From a virus: a stretch of 19,963 bases of DNA. The stretch lies in the UHGV virus genome UHGV-1527372, one strand, 5' to 3'. Position numbers and translations under genes: made by a program. Under the pieces are notes generated by a model. It worked only from the letters and a program-made list of their open reading frames with translations. It searched no databases and was not told the origin of the DNA. Each line of letters starts with the position of its first letter. Within the stretch, counting starts at the first letter, position 1. This document shows positions 2,104 to 19,963 of this stretch, piece by piece.

Positions 2104-4548
2104 TCAATAGTCGTGGGTCATGTTGGCACGCTGGCGGGCGCGTTTATCGCGCTCAATCTGTTCGAGCGTGTCGCGTAGTTGTCTGTCAAGCTGATGCCCC
2201 GGCGCAACACCTCCCGGCAGATTGATGTTGTATTCGCTTTTGCTCTGGTCAATGTAAGAGCGCCCCGCCGGTGCGGTAACTGGCTGATAAGCCTGATAGC
2301 CGCCATATGTGCTGGTTGCCGGGATGTAGGAATTACCCTGTGTGGCGGCATTGGTTTTGGCGGCGGTCTGGTCGAGGCTGTCCGACTCTTTGTTGATGAT
2401 GCCGAGCTTTTCGAGAAGCCAGTCGACACCGCTGCGCAGCTTGTTAAAAACATTGAGCGGAGCCATCAAGGCAGAGGCCAGTGCCTGACCAAATATGACG
2501 CCGACATTTTTGCAGCTATCAAGCGTTTCCTGCGTGGCCTTAACCGGTGCTATCAGGTCTTTAAACCACTGCCAGACGCCGCGCAGTTTCTCGCCGAGAC
2601 CATCAAAAATGGGAGCCAGTGGAGCGAACATTTCCCCGACTGGGGCAAAGGCACTCATGATGCCCTCAATCACTCCCGAGAAAAATGCGCTGATGGGCTC
2701 CCAATATTTACGGATGAGTAGCGCCCCCGCCACAATCGCCGCACCGACGGCCACTATCGGCCAGGTAATCGCACCGAGCGCTGTCGCAATGGCACTACCG
2801 ACGACAGTAAAGACCGTACCCAGCACGCCAGCAGCGGCGATAATGGCATTAATCCCCATGACAACCGGCCACGCAACGAGACCAATGCCGCCGATGATAC
2901 CAATCAGCGCCAGCGCACCACCGGCGATGATGCCGATAGTTTCCGCTAACTCCTTGTTGTCTTTGATCCAGTCATCAAGCTTTAGCACATACCGTGTTGC
3001 TGTCTGAGTTAGCTGACGCAATGAGCTATCTTGCTGGTCGTAGAGGTCGGTACCGACGGCCTCATAAGCGGATTGAAACTCTTTGAAGTCGCCACCTAAG
3101 TTATCCTGCATGACCTTAACCAATTCCTCGGTTTTACCGTCAGAATCCTTAATTATCTTGGTCAGTTCATCCAGTTTTCCACTGGCCGCTGCGGCCATTA
3201 ACACACTTGCAGCGGAACTGGCTTCCTCGCCGAATATCGTTTTCATATACTCGGCTTTTTGACCTGTACCGAGGTTGTTGCGCTTAAAGCTGGCTTGTAT
3301 TTCTTTCAGGATGGTAAAGATTGGCCGTGTATTGCCTTTTTTATCCATCGTCTTAACGCCAAGCTCTTTAATGGCATCATAGGCTTTGCCAGTTGGAGCC
3401 TGCAGTCGACTTAAAACAGCTCGGCTACCAGTTCCTGCCATCGAACCTATGATTTTTGCATCGTGTAGCGCACCCAGCATCGCGGCGGTTTCTTCTAGGC
3501 TGACACCGGCATCTTTGGCAACTGGACCAACATATGTAAGTGAGTCGTTTAATCCCTCAAATGATGCCTGTGTTTTATTTATCGCCATCGATATGACATC
3601 TGCTATATGCGATGCCTTGTCATCTGCGAGCCCGAATGCCGATTTGGTGCCAATAAGCAAAGCGGCGTTTTCCTCCATAGTTTTTTTATTTGCCAGCGAC
3701 ATATTCAGAATGGCCGGTGTTTGCGCCACTATGCCGTCTTTATCTGCGCCAGATTTGGCTACAATAATCTGCGCGGCGGCGGCATCATCTGCTGAGGCCG
3801 CTGAGTTATCGCCGAGCTGACGCGCCTGTTTGCGTAGAGCCTGCATTTCTGGAGACTGCTTATCGACCCCAAGCACGGCCTGCAGCTCGGAGTTTTTTTG
3901 CGCAAAGTCATAACCGGGCATCAGCAATTTAACCCCGGCCATCGTTCCCGCTGTCGCAATACCGACCCCGGCAGCACCTGCAGCGGCCATGTTACCGGCA
4001 AGCTCCTTACCCGATTTATATCGCTCTTTCACTCGGTTTAGGTGCGCCTGCTGTGCGCTGACCTTCGCCAATGCTTCACGCTGCCGGTTGAGCTGCGCCG
4101 TCGTCTCGCTGATGCGTGTTTTAAGCCCCCGCTCATCGTTTGCCAGATTGCGGGTATTGATACCGGCGGCACCCAGCTCGCGTTGCTGGCGTTTAACCGA
4201 CTCGGTGAGGCTGTTGTATTTAATCTGCAGCCCCTCGGCGGCACGTTTTGCGGATTCGAGCACCTGTGCCTGCGCTCGCGTCGGGCGCTCAGTATTTTTG
4301 AATTGCGTGGCAAGCGCTTCAGCCTCGCGCTTTGCCTTCTCCAGCGACTGGCCGGTTACGGCCAGTTGAGCGCTGGTTTTGCGAAAACCGTCAATTTTCG
4401 CGGCCTGCCCGTTCAGGTCACGCAGCCCTTTTTGTGTGTCGCGAATATCGCCCGACAGGGTTTTACTCGCGGTCTGGATGGATTTAAGCGGTCGGGTCGC
4501 CTGGTCGACCGCTTTCAGCAAAACCTCAAGTCTCAGGTTATTACTCAT
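2104..4548 (-). CDS. T: Tail tape measure protein T
   Basis: 814 aa with a coiled-coil N-terminal part and Gly/Ala-rich hydrophobic segments typical of tape measure proteins; sits directly downstream of E/E'. Confidence 0.9.
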   Translation of the reverse strand: MSNNLRLEVLLKAVDQATRPLKSIQTASKTLSGDIRDTQKGLRDLNGQAAKIDGFRKTSAQLAVTGQSLEKAKREAEALATQFKNTERPTRAQAQVLESAKRAAEGLQIKYNSLTESVKRQQRELGAAGINTRNLANDERGLKTRISETTAQLNRQREALAKVSAQQAHLNRVKERYKSGKELAGNMAAAGAAGVGIATAGTMAGVKLLMPGYDFAQKNSELQAVLGVDKQSPEMQALRKQARQLGDNSAASADDAAAAQIIVAKSGADKDGIVAQTPAILNMSLANKKTMEENAALLIGTKSAFGLADDKASHIADVISMAINKTQASFEGLNDSLTYVGPVAKDAGVSLEETAAMLGALHDAKIIGSMAGTGSRAVLSRLQAPTGKAYDAIKELGVKTMDKKGNTRPIFTILKEIQASFKRNNLGTGQKAEYMKTIFGEEASSAASVLMAAAASGKLDELTKIIKDSDGKTEELVKVMQDNLGGDFKEFQSAYEAVGTDLYDQQDSSLRQLTQTATRYVLKLDDWIKDNKELAETIGIIAGGALALIGIIGGIGLVAWPVVMGINAIIAAAGVLGTVFTVVGSAIATALGAITWPIVAVGAAIVAGALLIRKYWEPISAFFSGVIEGIMSAFAPVGEMFAPLAPIFDGLGEKLRGVWQWFKDLIAPVKATQETLDSCKNVGVIFGQALASALMAPLNVFNKLRSGVDWLLEKLGIINKESDSLDQTAAKTNAATQGNSYIPATSTYGGYQAYQPVTAPAGRSYIDQSKSEYNINLPGGVAPGHQLDRQLRDTLEQIERDKRARQRANMTHDY

Positions 4549-15372: not shown

Positions 15373-17142
15373 ATGACCATTTCCACAGATACAACCTTGT
15401 TGCATGACCCGCGACGGCAGGCATCGCTGCTTTACTGGCAGGGTTTTTCCGTGCCACAGATTGCCGAAATGCTGCAGGTCAAGCGCCCGACCGTGCAGAG
15501 CTGGAAGCAGCGCGACGGCTGGGACGGCATCGCGCCGATTTCCCGCGTTGAAAGCAGCCTTGAGGCCAGGCTGATTCAGCTCATCGCCAAGCCGCAAAAG
15601 ACAGGGGGTGATTTCAAAGAGATTGACCTGCTCGGACGGCAGATTGAACGGTTGGCGCGAGTCAACCGCTACAGCCAGACCGGCAACGAAGCCGACCTTA
15701 ACCCCAACGTCGCCAACCGCAACAAAGGGGAGCGCAAAAAGCCGAAAAAGAATTTTTTCAGCGACGAGGCTATCGATAAACTAGAGGAATTATTTTTCGA
15801 CCAGTCTTTCGAGTACCAGTTGCAGTGGTACCGCGCAGGACTGGAGCACCGTATTCGTGACATTCTCAAATCCCGCCAGATTGGCGCGACATTCTATTTC
15901 TCCCGCGAGTCACTGCTGCGCGCACTCAAAACTGGCCATAACCAGATATTTTTATCAGCCAGTAAAACGCAGGCTTACGTGTTCCGCGAATACATCATCC
16001 AGTTTGCGCGACTGGTCGACGTTGACCTGACTGGCGATCCGATTGTCATCGGTAACAACGGCGCAAAACTGATTTTTCTCGGTACCAATTCCAACACCGC
16101 GCAGAGCCATAACGGCGATCTGTATGTCGATGAAATATTCTGGATCCCGAATTTTCAGAAACTGCGCAAAGTCGCCTCGGGCATGGCCTCGCAAAAGCAC
16201 CTGCGCTCGACCTATTTTTCGACACCTTCCACGCTGGCGCACGGCGCTTACCCCTTCTGGTCTGGCGAGCTGTTCAACAAGGGGCGCAGCCGGATTGCCG
16301 ACCGCATCGAAATCGACATCAGTCACAGCGCGCTCGCCGGTGGCCAGCTCTGCGACGATGGCCAGTGGCGGCAGATTGTCACCATTGAGGACGCCCTTGC
16401 CGGTGGCTGCACCCTGTTCGACCTCGACCAGCTCAAACGCGAAAACAGTGATGAGGACTTTAAGAACCTGTTTATGTGCGAGTTTGTCGACGATAAAGCG
16501 TCGGTATTCCCGTTCGAGGAGCTGCAGCGCTGCATGGTCGATGTGATAGAGGAATGGGAGGACTTTGCCCCGTTCGCCGACCATCCGTTCGGCTCTCGTC
16601 CTGTCTGGATTGGCTACGACCCGTCACACACCGGCGACAGTGCCGGGTGCGTCGTGCTCGCGCCGCCGGTGGTCTCTGGTGGCAAGTTCCGCATGCTGGA
16701 GCGCCACCAGTGGAAGGGCATGGATTTTGCAGCACAGGCAGAGGGCATCCGCAAGCTGACCGAGAAATACAACGTCGAATACATCGGCATTGACGCAACC
16801 GGCCTCGGTCTCGGCGTGTTCCAGCTGGTGCGCTCATTTTACCCGGCGGCACGCGGCATCCGTTACACACCTGAAATGAAAACCGCAATGGTACTCAAGG
16901 CGAAAGACACCATTCGCCGTGGCTGTCTGGAGTACGACGCCGGAGCAACCGACGTCACGCAGTCGTTTATGTCCATCCGCAAAACCATGACCAGCAGCGG
17001 GCGCAGCGCCACCTATGAGGCCAGCCGCACCGAGGAAGCCAGCCACGCCGATATCGCATGGGCGACCATGCACGCCCTGTTAAACGAACCGCTTTCTGCC
17101 GGTAGCGGCATGCAGCCTAAATCTATTCTGGAGTTCAACTAA
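15373..17142 (+). CDS. P: Terminase large (ATPase) subunit P
   Basis: 589 aa, typical P2 gpP length and position, followed 1 nt later by Q. Confidence 0.9.
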   Translation: MTISTDTTLLHDPRRQASLLYWQGFSVPQIAEMLQVKRPTVQSWKQRDGWDGIAPISRVESSLEARLIQLIAKPQKTGGDFKEIDLLGRQIERLARVNRYSQTGNEADLNPNVANRNKGERKKPKKNFFSDEAIDKLEELFFDQSFEYQLQWYRAGLEHRIRDILKSRQIGATFYFSRESLLRALKTGHNQIFLSASKTQAYVFREYIIQFARLVDVDLTGDPIVIGNNGAKLIFLGTNSNTAQSHNGDLYVDEIFWIPNFQKLRKVASGMASQKHLRSTYFSTPSTLAHGAYPFWSGELFNKGRSRIADRIEIDISHSALAGGQLCDDGQWRQIVTIEDALAGGCTLFDLDQLKRENSDEDFKNLFMCEFVDDKASVFPFEELQRCMVDVIEEWEDFAPFADHPFGSRPVWIGYDPSHTGDSAGCVVLAPPVVSGGKFRMLERHQWKGMDFAAQAEGIRKLTEKYNVEYIGIDATGLGLGVFQLVRSFYPAARGIRYTPEMKTAMVLKAKDTIRRGCLEYDAGATDVTQSFMSIRKTMTSSGRSATYEASRTEEASHADIAWATMHALLNEPLSAGSGMQPKSILEFN

Positions 17143-17143
17143 A

Positions 17144-18190
17144 ATGGGTAAACAAAAATCCCGTAAAGCCAACGCACAAAAGGCCAGCAAACCACAACAA
17201 CTGACCGCCAGCGCACCACCAAAAACGACAGCGTTCACCTTCGGCGAGCCGGTGCCGGTACTCGATAAGCGCGACATTCTGGATTACGTCGAGTGCATCA
17301 GTAACGGCAAATGGTACGAGCCGCCGGTCAGCTTCTCAGGGCTGGCAAAGAGCCTGCGCTCTGCCGTGCATCACAGCTCGCCAATTTATGTTAAGCGTAA
17401 CGTGCTCGCGAGCACCTACATTCCGCACCCGTTGTTATCCCGTCAGGATTTCAGCCGCTTTGCGCTCGATTATCTGGTGTTCGGTAACGCCTTTCTTGAG
17501 CAGCGCCACAGCGTCACCGGCCAGTTAATCAAACTGCTGGCCTCGCCAGCCAAATACACCCGACGCGGAGTCGACGATTCGATTTTCTGGTTTGTGGAAA
17601 ACTTCACCCAGCCGCACGAGTTCGCGCCTGATACCGTGTTTCACCTGCTGGAGCCCGACATTAATCAGGAGATTTACGGTCTGCCGGAATATCTCAGCGC
17701 GCTTAATTCCGCTTGGCTGAATGAATCCGCGACGCTGTTCCGCCGCAAGTATTATCAGAACGGCGCGCACGCAGGCTACATCATGTATGTGACTGACCCG
17801 GCGCAAAGTGCGACCGACGTCGAATCGCTGCGCGAGGCGATGCGTAACTCGAAGGGACTCGGCAACTTTAAGAACCTGTTTTTCTACGCCCCCGGCGGAA
17901 AACCGGACGGCATCAAAATCGTGCCACTGAGCGAGGTCGCCACAAAGGATGACTTTTTCAACATTAAGAAAGCCAGCGCCGCCGACCTGATGGACGCGCA
18001 CCGCGTGCCGTTCCAGCTCATGGGCGGCAAGCCCGAGAATATCGGTTCACTCGGTGACGTTGAGAAGGTGGCAAAGGTATTTGTGCGTAATGAGCTGTCA
18101 CCCCTGCAGGATAGGTTCAGGGAGGTAAACGACTGGCTCGGTATGGAGGTCATCAGGTTCAAAGAGTACACACTCGACAACCCGGAATAA
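17144..18190 (+). CDS. Q: Portal protein Q
   Basis: 348 aa, last gene before cos as in P2. Confidence 0.9.
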   Translation: MGKQKSRKANAQKASKPQQLTASAPPKTTAFTFGEPVPVLDKRDILDYVECISNGKWYEPPVSFSGLAKSLRSAVHHSSPIYVKRNVLASTYIPHPLLSRQDFSRFALDYLVFGNAFLEQRHSVTGQLIKLLASPAKYTRRGVDDSIFWFVENFTQPHEFAPDTVFHLLEPDINQEIYGLPEYLSALNSAWLNESATLFRRKYYQNGAHAGYIMYVTDPAQSATDVESLREAMRNSKGLGNFKNLFFYAPGGKPDGIKIVPLSEVATKDDFFNIKKASAADLMDAHRVPFQLMGGKPENIGSLGDVEKVAKVFVRNELSPLQDRFREVNDWLGMEVIRFKEYTLDNPE

Positions 18191-18200
18191 TCACCTTTTA

Positions 18201-18225
18201 AGCCGCCATTTTGGCGGCTTTTGCT
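18201..18225 (+). terminator. Intrinsic terminator after Q
   Basis: AGCCGCC-ATTTT-GGCGGCT followed by TTTTGCT, 10 nt after the Q stop. Confidence 0.65.
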
Positions 18226-18228
18226 ATG

Positions 18229-18453
18229 TTAGCCTTTAGACTTTTTAGGATCATCTTTTCTCTGATAAGTGCGTTCTTCCTGAATTTTCCCATCTTCCTT
18301 GTGAATTTTGACCGAGCCTGTTTTGTTCGACATAAACTCAGATGTTGTTTTAATCAGCTCGGCCTTTGTGGGCGCGGTCTTGCTAGGGCGGTCATTGCCC
18401 TCTTTTTGCAACTTCCACTTATCGCCATCTTTTGTAATATGATAGTTATCCAT
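18229..18453 (-). CDS. DUF2188-like small protein (moron between portal gene and cos)
   Basis: MDNYHITKDGDKWKLQKEGNDRPSKTAPTKAELIKTTSEFMSNKTGSVKIHKEDGKIQEERTYQRKDDPKKSKG fits the DUF2188 pattern as recalled. Strong GGAGG RBS 5 nt upstream of the ATG at 18453. Markedly AT-rich compared with the phage backbone. Confidence 0.6.
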   Translation of the reverse strand: MDNYHITKDGDKWKLQKEGNDRPSKTAPTKAELIKTTSEFMSNKTGSVKIHKEDGKIQEERTYQRKDDPKKSKG

Positions 18454-18546
18454 TAAAGCCTCCAACTGTTGTGGGGAACATAAAGTCTCAATATGGATAT
18501 TAGCCAAAGCGAAACCGTAAAATTGTGCAACTGATCCCATCCTTTA

Positions 18547-18646
18547 GCACCACGCCACAGACGCACCACGCGCCCACGATCACACCCGGCCACTACAGCG
18601 CCGTCACGACGTTCTCAGACGATAATTTTTAATAATACGCACCACC
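18547..18646. repeat. Three GCACCAC(G/C) direct repeats flanking the cos side (candidate terminase recognition elements)
   Basis: GCACCACG at 18547-18554 and 18563-18570, GCACCACC at 18639-18646, all within about 110 bp of the cos core. Confidence 0.3.
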
Positions 18647-18657
18647 GCTGGCGCGCA

Positions 18658-18676
18658 ATGCTTTCCCCGCCACGCC
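18658..18676 (-). other. cos: cos cohesive-end core, 186-type
   Basis: Minus strand reads GGCGTGGCGGGGAAAGCAT, which matches the 19-nt cohesive end of phage 186 as I recall it (the P2 end differs at two positions); located just beyond Q as expected. Confidence 0.7.
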
Positions 18677-18841
18677 TGCCCGCTTTATGGGTCGGTTTTA
18701 ATGCAGTTGCATGACAACTCTGGATCCGCGCTAGCTCTGGCGGCGCACGGACAGAACGGGCAAGACTGACGCATGCAAAACCATGCACCTGATGCATGCA
18801 CGACTAAAAAACGGGAAATTCGCGGAAAAATGGCATAAAAA

Positions 18842-18863
18842 AACCGGCATTCAGGGTGCCGGT
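18842..18863 (-). terminator. Strong intrinsic terminator ending the post-cos cargo transcript (usable in both directions)
   Basis: Minus strand ACCGGCA-CCCTGAA-TGCCGGT followed by TTTTTTTAT; the plus-strand side is followed by TTTAGTCTGGTTTT. Confidence 0.7.
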
Positions 18864-18884
18864 TTTAGTCTGGTTTTGTCGCGA

Positions 18885-18986
18885 TTAATGGCCGCGCAAT
18901 GCGCCAATAACACTGTTGAGGCACATGCTGGCAACAATCATCAGAAAAATCGTCGTCCACGGATTTTCATAAACGAGAGATAACAT
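18885..18986 (-). CDS. Candidate 33-aa hydrophobic small membrane peptide
   Basis: ATG-initiated ORF MLSLVYENPWTTIFLMIVASMCLNSVIGALRGH with one predicted TM segment; starts 16 nt after the upstream ORF stop with AAGAGGAA upstream (12-nt spacing, suboptimal); ends 20 nt before the terminator. Confidence 0.3.
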   Translation of the reverse strand: MLSLVYENPWTTIFLMIVASMCLNSVIGALRGH

Positions 18987-19002
18987 ATTTATATAGTTCC
19001 TC

Positions 19003-19197
19003 TTATTTGCGCATTCTGATGTGATTTAACAGGTGTTTGATAACGACTGATAGCTCATCTTTACCGGCCTGCTCGACCATTTTTGCGGTGTAGCTTTCCA
19101 CCTCGCGAGAGCTCAGGTCGTTATTTAAAGCCATTAAAGTCAGATTCTTTGCCCAATCGACAAACGGGTCATTTTTCGATGAAAGGGGATTTTGCAT
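19003..19197 (-). CDS. Hypothetical small protein (64 aa), post-cos cargo
   Basis: MQNPLSSKNDPFVDWAKNLTLMALNNDLSSREVESYTAKMVEQAGKDELSVVIKHLLNHIRMRK; ATG with GAGG 9 nt upstream; AT-rich. The 94-aa TTG-start extension in the ORF track would read through the upstream repeat and is not favoured. Confidence 0.5.
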   Translation of the reverse strand: MQNPLSSKNDPFVDWAKNLTLMALNNDLSSREVESYTAKMVEQAGKDELSVVIKHLLNHIRMRK

Positions 19198-19259
19198 GTC
19201 CAAAAACCTCGAATTATTTAACCAGCAGACGGTTGAAGTATTTGCGACGCTATGACCGG

Positions 19260-19328
19260 CTAACGCCTCGCGTAGCTCGTTGTTCAACCCCGCCAGACCT
19301 GAAAGCGAGTTTCAGCTCCGGCGGCGTT
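19260..19328. repeat. 69-bp structured direct repeat, copy 1
   Basis: About 85% identical to 19665-19733; contains the CTGAAA-N5-TTTCAG palindrome inside a longer imperfect stem; begins 2 nt after the stop of the 69-aa ORF on the minus strand. Confidence 0.75.
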
Positions 19329-19330
19329 AT

Positions 19331-19540
19331 CTATGGTCGACGTGGTGGCGGTGAGTAATGTGTCGGCTTGCTGATGCTATCCAGCTTGCCGTAATTATCC
19401 CTGACTATTTCGGCACACCCGACCAGCTCGGCGGGTGTCAAATTCTCATTGACCATTATCTGCTGCAGACGATGAACGATGGCCATCAGTTTGATGCTTT
19501 TAGTTTTGTGCTGCGGAATTTCGCCCGGTAGTCGATGCAT
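19331..19540 (-). CDS. Hypothetical small protein (69 aa), post-cos cargo
   Basis: MHRLPGEIPQHKTKSIKLMAIVHRLQQIMVNENLTPAELVGCAEIVRDNYGKLDSISKPTHYSPPPRRP; ATG with GAGGG 8 nt upstream; flanked on both sides by the 69-bp repeat. Confidence 0.55.
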   Translation of the reverse strand: MHRLPGEIPQHKTKSIKLMAIVHRLQQIMVNENLTPAELVGCAEIVRDNYGKLDSISKPTHYSPPPRRP

Positions 19541-19664
19541 ATTATCGCCCTCAATGAATTTTATTTAGTGCTGCCACAGCGCCACTATAAAACCCACTAA
19601 GGTAACGTCCCATTCATCACTGGTGTGTAACCAATAAAACATCGAGAAACTTTGAGAGGAAGAA

Positions 19665-19733
19665 CTAGCGCCTCGCGGTGCGAGTTGTTCAACCCCGCCA
19701 GCACTGAAAGCAAGTTTCAGCACCGGCAGCGTT
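19665..19733. repeat. 69-bp structured direct repeat, copy 2
   Basis: Same element as 19260-19328, with an additional small hairpin CTCGC-GGT-GCGAG; begins 2 nt after the stop of the partial ORF. Confidence 0.75.
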
Positions 19734-19735
19734 TG

Positions 19736-19963
19736 TTAATGCAGCCAGCTATCGTCCTCCCATACCTGCTGCATGATTTCCATTACTCGTTTTTTATCTT
19801 CGTCCAGTTTCAAACCGCTTAGTTCAACGCCATTAGCGGAGCCCTTGCGAATTCGGATAGCAGTCTTTGGGTAAATAGGTTGAAGATTGCGGTACAGTTC
19901 AGCCTCAAGGTAATGACTCCAACTTATTGATAGTGTTTTATGTTCAGATAATGCCCGATGACT
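19736..19963 (-). CDS. Partial gene (C-terminal 75 codons; start lies beyond the window end), unknown function
   Basis: Open frame from the window edge, ...YLEAELYRNLQPIYPKTAIRIRKGSANGVELSGLKLDEDKKRVMEIMQQVWEDDSWLH*, ending at TAA 19736-19738. Not reported in the ORF track because its start is outside the window. Confidence 0.5.
   Translation of the reverse strand, partial: SHRALSEHKTLSISWSHYLEAELYRNLQPIYPKTAIRIRKGSANGVELSGLKLDEDKKRVMEIMQQVWEDDSWLH

Follow-up and report, generated by a model that had tools for sequence, protein, structure and literature searches.

A repeat pair in the SOS operon of a 186/PSP3-like prophage as putative phiX174-type primosome assembly sites

Towards its end, the stretch of DNA analysed here (the window; 19,963 nucleotides of the virus genome UHGV-1527372) contains the right arm of a 186/PSP3-like (Eganvirus) prophage. 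On its plus strand, the genes for the terminase (15373-17142) and the portal protein (17144-18190) are followed by a minus-strand gene encoding a DUF2188 protein (18229-18540). Found in some relatives only, this gene lies at the far left end of the phage genome, with the portal gene on one side and cos on the other. The cohesive-end sequence GGCGTGGCGGGGAAAGCAT (18658-18676, minus strand) is identical to the cohesive end of 186 and represents the junction of the right and left genome ends in the prophage. The minus strand near the end of the window belongs to the SOS (tum) operon, of which it carries the distal part. The operon is closed by a hairpin with a T-run (18840-18866, minus strand), which was called by a terminator scan and is homologous, according to the 186 annotation and sequence, to the terminator t95b that closes the SOS operon of 186.

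At the other side, the operon is interrupted by the end of an insertion sequence (19910-19963), which we take to be the terminal inverted repeat of IS1. For this segment, 71353 matching places were found in 4977 E. coli genomes, and the homology of relatives ends at query position 1710. The interrupted gene is tumB, of which the 3' part has been retained (19736-19909, minus strand). Relatives annotate a DinI family protein of 77 aa at this position, and the Pfam family DinI was found on the intact homologue. As the insertion removes the 5' part of tumB, tumA, and the LexA-controlled promoter, the prophage may have lost its SOS inducibility. Three small minus-strand ORFs without a Pfam family lie between tumB and the terminator. 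The first is a 69-aa ORF (19331-19540) that is similar to gp37 of PSP3 and has an unannotated homologue in P2-type phages. The second, a 64-aa ORF (19003-19197), belongs to the variable cargo. Directly downstream of it, a further cargo ORF of 33 aa (18885-18986; MLSLVYENPWTTIFLMIVASMCLNSVIGALRGH) was read from the sequence; it contains no internal stops, is unannotated in relatives, is strongly hydrophobic, and looks like a small membrane peptide or toxin.

The 69-aa ORF is bracketed by a direct repeat of 69 nt, the copies of which are located at 19260-19328 and 19665-19733 with a spacing of 405 and are identical at 59 of 69 positions (86%). This pair had been pointed out in a sequence-only reading of the window and was reproduced by a repeat search. 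Further details of that description proved to be accurate as well: both copies begin 2 nt past the stop codon of a minus-strand ORF (19331-19333 for the 69-aa ORF, 19736-19738 for tumB), both contain the palindrome CTGAAA-N5-TTTCAG within a longer stem, and the reported differences between the two stems (A-U to U.G, and G/G to G.U) are real. A covariance model (CM R1) places the limits of the element slightly outside the coordinates of the repeat. Copy 1, downstream of the 69-aa ORF and upstream of the 64-aa ORF, extends from 19259 to 19331 on the minus strand (93.8 bits) and comprises hairpin 1 (19286-19328), a linker G (19285), and hairpin 2 (19262-19284). Copy 2, downstream of the DinI/TumB-like ORF, extends from 19664 to 19736 on the same strand (88.3 bits) with hairpin 1 at 19691-19733, the linker G at 19690, and hairpin 2 at 19667-19689. 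In an Rfam scan of positions 18000-19963, no family matched the element at E-values up to 10, apart from a chance match to a miRNA (19.5 bits vs. a gathering score of 52).

Folding of both copies in both orientations revealed a clear preference for the minus strand. With RNA parameters, copies 1 and 2 reach -30.7 and -33.3 kcal/mol on the minus strand (z -2.9 and -3.5), compared to -22.4 and -19.4 kcal/mol on the plus strand (z -1.7 and -0.2). With DNA parameters, the respective values are -22.7 and -18.0 for the minus strand vs. -14.4 and -10.1 for the plus strand. The folded element is a discrete module of about 72 nt. Its long hairpin 1 has the form AAC-G-[15 bp]-G-GUU and is followed by one unpaired G, while the short hairpin 2 has the form AAC-AA-C(GA/UC)GC-NNN-GC(GA)G-GC-GUU and is thus closed by AAC and GUU like hairpin 1. 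Most copies contain tandem G.A pairs in hairpin 2, others U-A and C-G; copy 2 of the window has the Watson-Crick form CUCGC/GCGAG.

The covariance model was built from homologues, among which structural covariation of hairpin 1 was found. In an alignment of 62 distinct copies (A1), 94.6% of the cells of its 18 pairs are paired, and 9 of the 18 pairs have changed on both sides. None of 500 shuffles was as good, and pairing dropped to about 40% when the partner was slid. A diverse set of 24 sequences is 90% paired, with double changes in 14 of 26 pairs and a covariation of 0.47, compared to 0.18 after shuffling and at most 0.10 after sliding (alignment A3 was fitted to the model). G.U pairs, frequent at three central positions of hairpin 1, restrict the fold to one strand. 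The tail GGGGTTGAACAACGAGC..CGCGAGGCGTTAG is near-invariant in a set that is partly pattern-selected; its invariance is overstated because alignment A1 was gathered with a pattern fixing part of the tail, and divergent tails were found by pattern-free searches. An alternative long-range helix formed by AACGCC and GGCGTT is disfavoured because variants with a C at the G/G mismatch improve hairpin 1 instead.

BLAST searches with either copy led to matches in 186, PSP3, Wphi, and P2-type phages as well as in phages of Yersinia, Klebsiella, Salmonella, and Erwinia. The repeat is therefore not private to the window and recurs after gene ends in other P2-like phages. A degenerate pattern search resulted in 99 viral loci, the context of which was mapped by tblastn. 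In these loci, the element has a single invariant context downstream of the replication gene A, in the same orientation as this gene, and upstream of cos and the portal gene. It begins within a few nt of the stop codon of the last gene, which can be DinI, the 69-aa ORF, orf97 of 186, TumA, or A itself. Next on its 3' side come either the terminator and cos, at a fixed distance of +243, or variable cargo. Where the neighbours differ, homology is limited to about 72 nt, with 62-90% identity in the module compared to roughly 45-60% in the 80-nt flanks, the latter being about the background of the aligner.

The prevalence of the element was determined in unbiased samples selected by the A protein. 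It is present in 48 of 72 186-type loci (about 67%), 16 of which have two copies, and in 15 of 64 P2-type loci (about 23%), and it is located on the A-sense strand in every locus of these samples. Reference P2 has no copy. The module is not essential, since it is lacking in one third of the 186-type loci and in P2 itself. In many two-copy loci, pattern-free searches revealed a divergent upstream copy, in which the hairpin sequence has changed yet is still paired, indicating that both copies are maintained. P2-type phages also contain two weak same-strand matches to the covariance model (17-18 bits; L137 574-641 and L005 94-161) at homologous spots near the 5' end of gene A, which could be chance matches or a remote relative of the element.

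The element was found in about a quarter of the complete E. coli genomes. Among the findings that the sequence-only reading had named as speaking against its proposal are a restriction to the two copies and a scattering as a host REP or MITE. Neither holds, as the module recurs in prophages and plasmids: a REP/MITE-like repeat was rejected on the basis of a median of one place per element-bearing E. coli genome, with a maximum of 6 and with a prophage or plasmid as context in all sampled cases. Across 185,579 species genomes, only 29 stretches were found. With hundreds of phage loci and thousands of plasmids carrying the module, the repeat pair is far beyond chance.

One of the possibilities named in the sequence-only reading was an RNA processing or stability element. 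According to this explanation, the element would act mainly in the mRNA, where the hairpin following the stop codon would attenuate or terminate transcription or block 3' exonucleases and thereby tune the small genes of the SOS operon. This would agree with the strong RNA fold, with the mRNA sense of the element in all phages, and with a stop codon that precedes the element by exactly 2 nt in 49 of 66 unique copies, the genes to which it belongs being unrelated. In addition, a homologous hairpin of phiX174 (see below) overlaps with the terminator T_F, and the slot after tum in 186 holds a genuine partial terminator, t95a. On the other hand, neither copy is followed by a U-tract, as had already been recognized in the sequence-only reading, and the terminator scan calls neither of them. 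In 186, moreover, the real terminator t95b follows 23 nt later, so that a hairpin for 3'-end formation would be redundant. An intrinsic terminator was also rejected on the basis of the bases that follow the stems, which are GAACAAC for hairpin 1 and AGCC or AGTT for hairpin 2; the scan called only the t95b-like structure at 18840-18866.

The partial terminator t95a of 186 (L004 1705-1736), which ends with ...CATGGGGTTGTTTTG, has the motif GGGGTTG in common with hairpin 1 (3' arm). Where PSP3-type phages carry an element copy, 186 has t95a, which may have arisen from the element by gaining a U-tract. Also in 186, the stop codon preceding the AAC of hairpin 1 is the second of two in-frame stops (TAA ACA TGA; L004 2493-2501). 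On the opposite strand, the 3' end of the element (GTTAG or GTCAG) reads TAA or TGA, and one plasmid gene (DUF2726) stops there.

The copies on plasmids allow a distinction between an mRNA element and a signal acting in single-stranded DNA. In PLSDB, at least 5000 plasmids contain the module, mostly conjugative IncF types, and often in two copies. A complete plasmid contains exactly two matches to the covariance model, one in the slot between traT and traD and one in the slot between a variable block and copB/repA, and the same two slots are used in five further plasmid lineages. In all six lineages, every gene next to the element is antisense to the structured strand, and the regions flanking the plasmid copies have no promoter- or terminator-like sites on this strand. 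A stand-alone antisense sRNA was rejected for the same reason. The hairpin 1 sequences of plasmid variants are almost unrelated and still paired, and the fold of the structured strand exceeds that of the complement in stability by 7-17 kcal/mol. Hairpin 2 of the plasmid copies shows a swap from A-U to G-C together with a coordinated insertion of one base on each side (paired U/A). Copies that are antisense to their neighbours, have no promoter or terminator of their own, and nevertheless undergo compensatory change and keep the G.U asymmetry cannot be explained by an mRNA element, but can be explained by a signal in single-stranded DNA. The earlier suggestion of selection on an RNA structure instead of a decaying duplication thus stands with respect to selection on structure, which concerns one strand (the operon sense) only, and was abandoned with respect to RNA as the main level. 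A further suggestion, binding by one of the adjacent small proteins, found no evidence, and the genes upstream and downstream of the element are interchangeable.

Altogether, a mainly mRNA-based function is considered unlikely. A role in RNA survives only as a possible second one, because the phiX174 hairpin overlaps T_F; by analogy, blocking of ribosome entry, attenuation of transcription, or protection of the 3' end are plausible secondary effects. The 2-nt spacing to the stop codon, seen in 49 of the 66 unique phage copies, suggests that some constraint acts on the mRNA as well; alternatively, it could originate from compaction of the genome around an intergenic DNA signal.

In the complete plasmid, an F-type nic sequence is located on the same strand as both copies, and the leading region lies at higher coordinates. 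The nic sequence is conventionally written on the cleaved strand, from which it follows that the copies are located on the transferred single strand (T-strand). The inserts flanked by the plasmid slots (L106 37931-38671; L141 2133-3143; L139 3150-4597) vary with the IncF lineage and contain genes for a 246-aa protein without Pfam family, DUF2726, vapBC, hok, and PIN-domain proteins. This resembles the turnover of cargo beside the phage copies.

Similarity to a known single-strand signal was found with the covariance model R1, which had been built from peduovirus and F-plasmid copies only, without phiX174, and the E-values of which are rough. In phiX174, it has one strong match at 2305-2372 on the plus (viral) strand with 37.9 bits and an E-value of about 1e-8. 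A sequence-only profile (nhmmer) identified the same place with an E-value of 0.0012. By eye, the match can be recognized from the motifs AACGCCG and GGGGTTGACCAA together with a long hairpin, the apex of which is A/T-rich, and a short one with GCGGTAG at its end. BLAST starting from the phiX174 site reached no peduovirus. Other sequence amounting to about 1.5 Mb yielded no matches of the covariance model outside the element except reverse-strand shadows of true copies, which scored up to about 29 bits.

In phiX174, a hairpin with its 5' stem at 2308-2326 has been described as overlapping the complementary-strand origin, ori(-), and as being the PriA binding site as well as the terminator T_F, and a shorter hairpin just downstream at 2353-2373 is also sensitive to mutation in saturation mutagenesis (bioRxiv 10.64898/2026.07.25.740675). 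As the positions coincide, hairpins 1 and 2 of the match correspond to the ori(-)/PriA hairpin and this short hairpin. On SSB-coated phiX174 DNA, PriA, PriB, PriC, and DnaT load DnaB at the primosome assembly site (PMC5778457). Shared with this F-G intergenic site are the motifs AACGCCG and GGGGTTGA.CAA, a long hairpin whose apex is rich in A/T, and a second, short hairpin that ends with GCG.TAG. The element is also similarly placed, on a strand that probably turns single-stranded and directly after the stop codon of a gene, which is gene F in phiX174. There are also differences. In phiX174, a single-stranded DNA virus, stage I replication necessarily starts at this site, whereas the prophage belongs to double-stranded DNA phages with rolling-circle replication, which can do without the site and sometimes have it twice. 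Furthermore, the short hairpin of phiX174 is followed by a U-rich tract belonging to T_F, whereas the element has no U-tract and a longer hairpin 2 with tandem G.A pairs.

ColE1 has a single match to the covariance model at 1532-1606 on the minus strand (25.3 bits, E-value 1e-5), which is modest, weaker than the similarity to phiX174, and obtained with the covariance model only; the sequence-only profile did not detect this site. The match (L302 1532-1606) lies directly past the stop codon of rop on the rop sense strand, which is the same placement as in the phages and in phiX174. This stretch next to rop is presumably the mapped ssiB or H-strand factor Y site of pBR322. ColE1 carries the PriA-dependent sites ssiA and ssiB (PMC3167613), and the PriA sites of ColE1/pBR322 serve the priming of the lagging and leading strands and probably also of the mobilised strand (PMC3167613; PMC4595007).

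The single-strand origins (sso) known from rolling-circle plasmids and ICEs, like the single-strand initiation (ssi) signals on conjugative plasmids, are orientation-specific, active only in single-stranded form, non-coding, dispensable, and module-like (PMC4595007; PMC7690428). The element is likewise portable and dispensable with homology confined to the module, and its IncF copies are located on the T-strand. Pairing rather than sequence is maintained over about 70 nt in two adjacent hairpins, as in ssi of the PriA type. As a counterpoint, PriA sites are usually described as structure-specific, which would not require a tail as conserved in sequence as the near-invariant GGGGTTGAACAACGAGC..CGCGAGGCGTTAG. 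In contrast to the element, signals of the sso and Frpo types recruit RNA polymerase via promoter-like hairpins; the element is devoid of boxes resembling -35 and -10 and absent from the leading region of F. A single-stranded DNA promoter of the Frpo type was rejected accordingly, as no promoter-like hexamers were found at the element and the 50-kb plasmid half with the leading region contained no match to the covariance model. A primase-dependent origin of the G4 type was rejected as well, since no match exceeded 8.3 bits in G4 and none was located at its origin (3970-3998).

The two repeats are probably primosome assembly sites of the phiX174 type (n'-pas, a kind of ssi signal), located on the strand that the A protein would displace. 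We estimate a probability of about 0.65 for this assignment; a dependence on PriA would follow from the resemblance to the phiX174 site. While this class of element is classical, its occurrence in the P2/186-like phage family appears to be new. In the literature searched, which did not cover key older papers, there was no report of the element in P2/186-like phages, no printed sequence, and no link between PriA and P2 or 186. Eleven ssi of conjugative plasmids were catalogued in 1991, as far as can be taken from a citation in PMC7690428, and the IncF copies may be among them. If the assignment is correct, one classical replication signal of phiX174 and ColE1 would be a portable module common to temperate double-stranded DNA phages and thousands of clinically important IncF plasmids, where it lies on the T-strand and not in the well-studied leading region.

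A mechanism can be proposed from the position of the module relative to the replication origin. The nick site of ori is annotated inside gene A, at 29892 in P2 and at 28576 in 186, and the gene A protein of phiX174 nicks within its own gene on the viral strand. Judging from the annotation and this parallel, the A protein would nick the sense strand at ori inside gene A and thereby start rolling-circle replication. Leading-strand synthesis would then displace the A-sense strand, and the module would be exposed after about 1.8 kb in 186. Presumably inert in duplex DNA, it would fold into the long hairpin, the unpaired G, and the short hairpin once it is single-stranded. As in phiX174 and ColE1, PriA may recognise this fork-like fold on SSB-coated DNA and recruit PriB and DnaT, whereupon DnaC would load DnaB and DnaG would prime the lagging strand. 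The presence of two copies in the window could be due to the joining of two gene-plus-site modules in this lineage, one consisting of tumAB and its site and the other of the 69-aa ORF and its site. The IncF copies, in turn, would serve for the priming of complementary synthesis on the incoming T-strand.

The T-strand also offers an opposite explanation, in which the folded strand is a roadblock to second-strand synthesis and not its start site, so that the region next to it would stay single-stranded for a longer time. A precedent exists in the leading region of F, where a stable T-strand hairpin stalls complementary-strand synthesis (bioRxiv 10.64898/2026.01.09.698686). However, beyond the leading region, where the copies of the element are located, the same study found T-strand conversion to be continuous with entry. 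As the element is moreover similar to a priming site and not to single-strand promoters, and as the leading region contains no match to the covariance model, a roadblock has only a very slight chance of being the correct explanation.

For a priming function, the helicase-loader gene B of P2 is of interest. Its annotation reads 'required for lagging strand synthesis', and it is absent from 186-type phages. The element is commoner in phages lacking B (48 of 72 loci vs. 15 of 64; Fisher p 5e-7), a comparison that is confounded by phylogeny. Strict complementarity between the element and gene B was rejected, as 23% of the B-carrying loci have the element and 33% of the B-less loci do not. It is conceivable, as a tentative extension of the primosome model, that 186-type peduoviruses without B depend on the host PriA primosome, loaded at the module, to start their lagging strand and that the module, being common to many phages and IncF plasmids, additionally is a homology anchor fixing one border of the TO hotspot for anti-phage defence and of the IncF variable regions. 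If so, a replication signal would shape where cargo is exchanged. The start of the lagging strand in P2/186-like phages is only partly understood, given that P2 needs B and 186 has none. A site of the PriA type about 1.8 kb downstream of ori would be a concrete answer, and it predicts that the dependence on priA, dnaT, and dnaC differs between B-carrying and B-less relatives.

The sequence-only reading had also suggested a cassette-boundary element for the exchange of cargo. This was correct insofar as the module is located at the proximal edge of the variable TO hotspot, the region that is known to hold anti-phage genes (PMC9122126), and also borders variable blocks in IncF plasmids. Exchange as the primary function is not favoured. 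Such a function would require a recombination site or anchor that marks the boundaries of cassettes and mediates the exchange of cargo at the P2 TO hotspot and in the IncF variable regions, and several observations are compatible with it. The module sits exactly at the junction of backbone and variable cargo in phages and plasmids, homology is limited to the module, and the title of a 2004 paper ties site-specific recombination to the region. Furthermore, the unit of the 69-aa ORF plus site was found after A, after the DinI site, and after the orf97 site and in this way gives rise to flanking direct repeats. This placement is what recombination inside a common patch of 72 nt would produce. However, no dedicated recombinase is associated with the element, larger cargo has no second flanking copy and is bordered on the right by the terminator and cos, and the core arrangement of attC sites is absent. 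Covariation and the similarity to a replication signal already explain the conservation, with the patch of homology as a by-product. A dedicated recombination site is therefore regarded as quite improbable, and recombination at the module as a consequence of its conservation and not as its primary function. Irrespective of this, the module is a conserved non-coding landmark at the edge of a hotspot for defence genes and can be used to delimit cargo in the annotation of prophages.

Several other types of elements were compared with the repeat and rejected. An integron attC site does not apply because AAC and GTT are the outermost and not the innermost pairs and the 7-mers that would correspond to the inverse core RYYYAAC and the core GTTRRRY, which pair at the hairpin base in attC, are not complementary in alignment A1; moreover, there are only one or two copies, and no association with an integrase in the phage loci. 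The element is not part of cos, the distance to which is 243 nt without cargo and up to about 3.5 kb with cargo, and has no similarity to the nick site of the A protein. A coding or read-through function was rejected as well: both copies are in frame with the upstream stop codon, but 8 of the 10 differences between them are non-synonymous, and conservation tracks base-pairing. A LexA box was rejected because of the wrong spacing (CTG-N11-CAG) and an apex of the hairpin that varies among lineages, and the Chi-like sequence GCTGGCGG is missing from variant hairpins. Inspection by eye revealed no resemblance to dif/cer, Ter, a DnaA box, or KOPS.

Copies of the element were also encountered in assemblies of other bacteria. 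The copies in short contigs from Streptomyces, Acinetobacter, Lachnospiraceae, and Merdiplasma assemblies (L108, L111, L120, L122, L126, and L127) are identical to the IncF plasmid element, and a Chryseobacterium contig (L124) contains a copy of the phage type. Most likely, these contigs represent contamination with enterobacterial plasmid or phage DNA.
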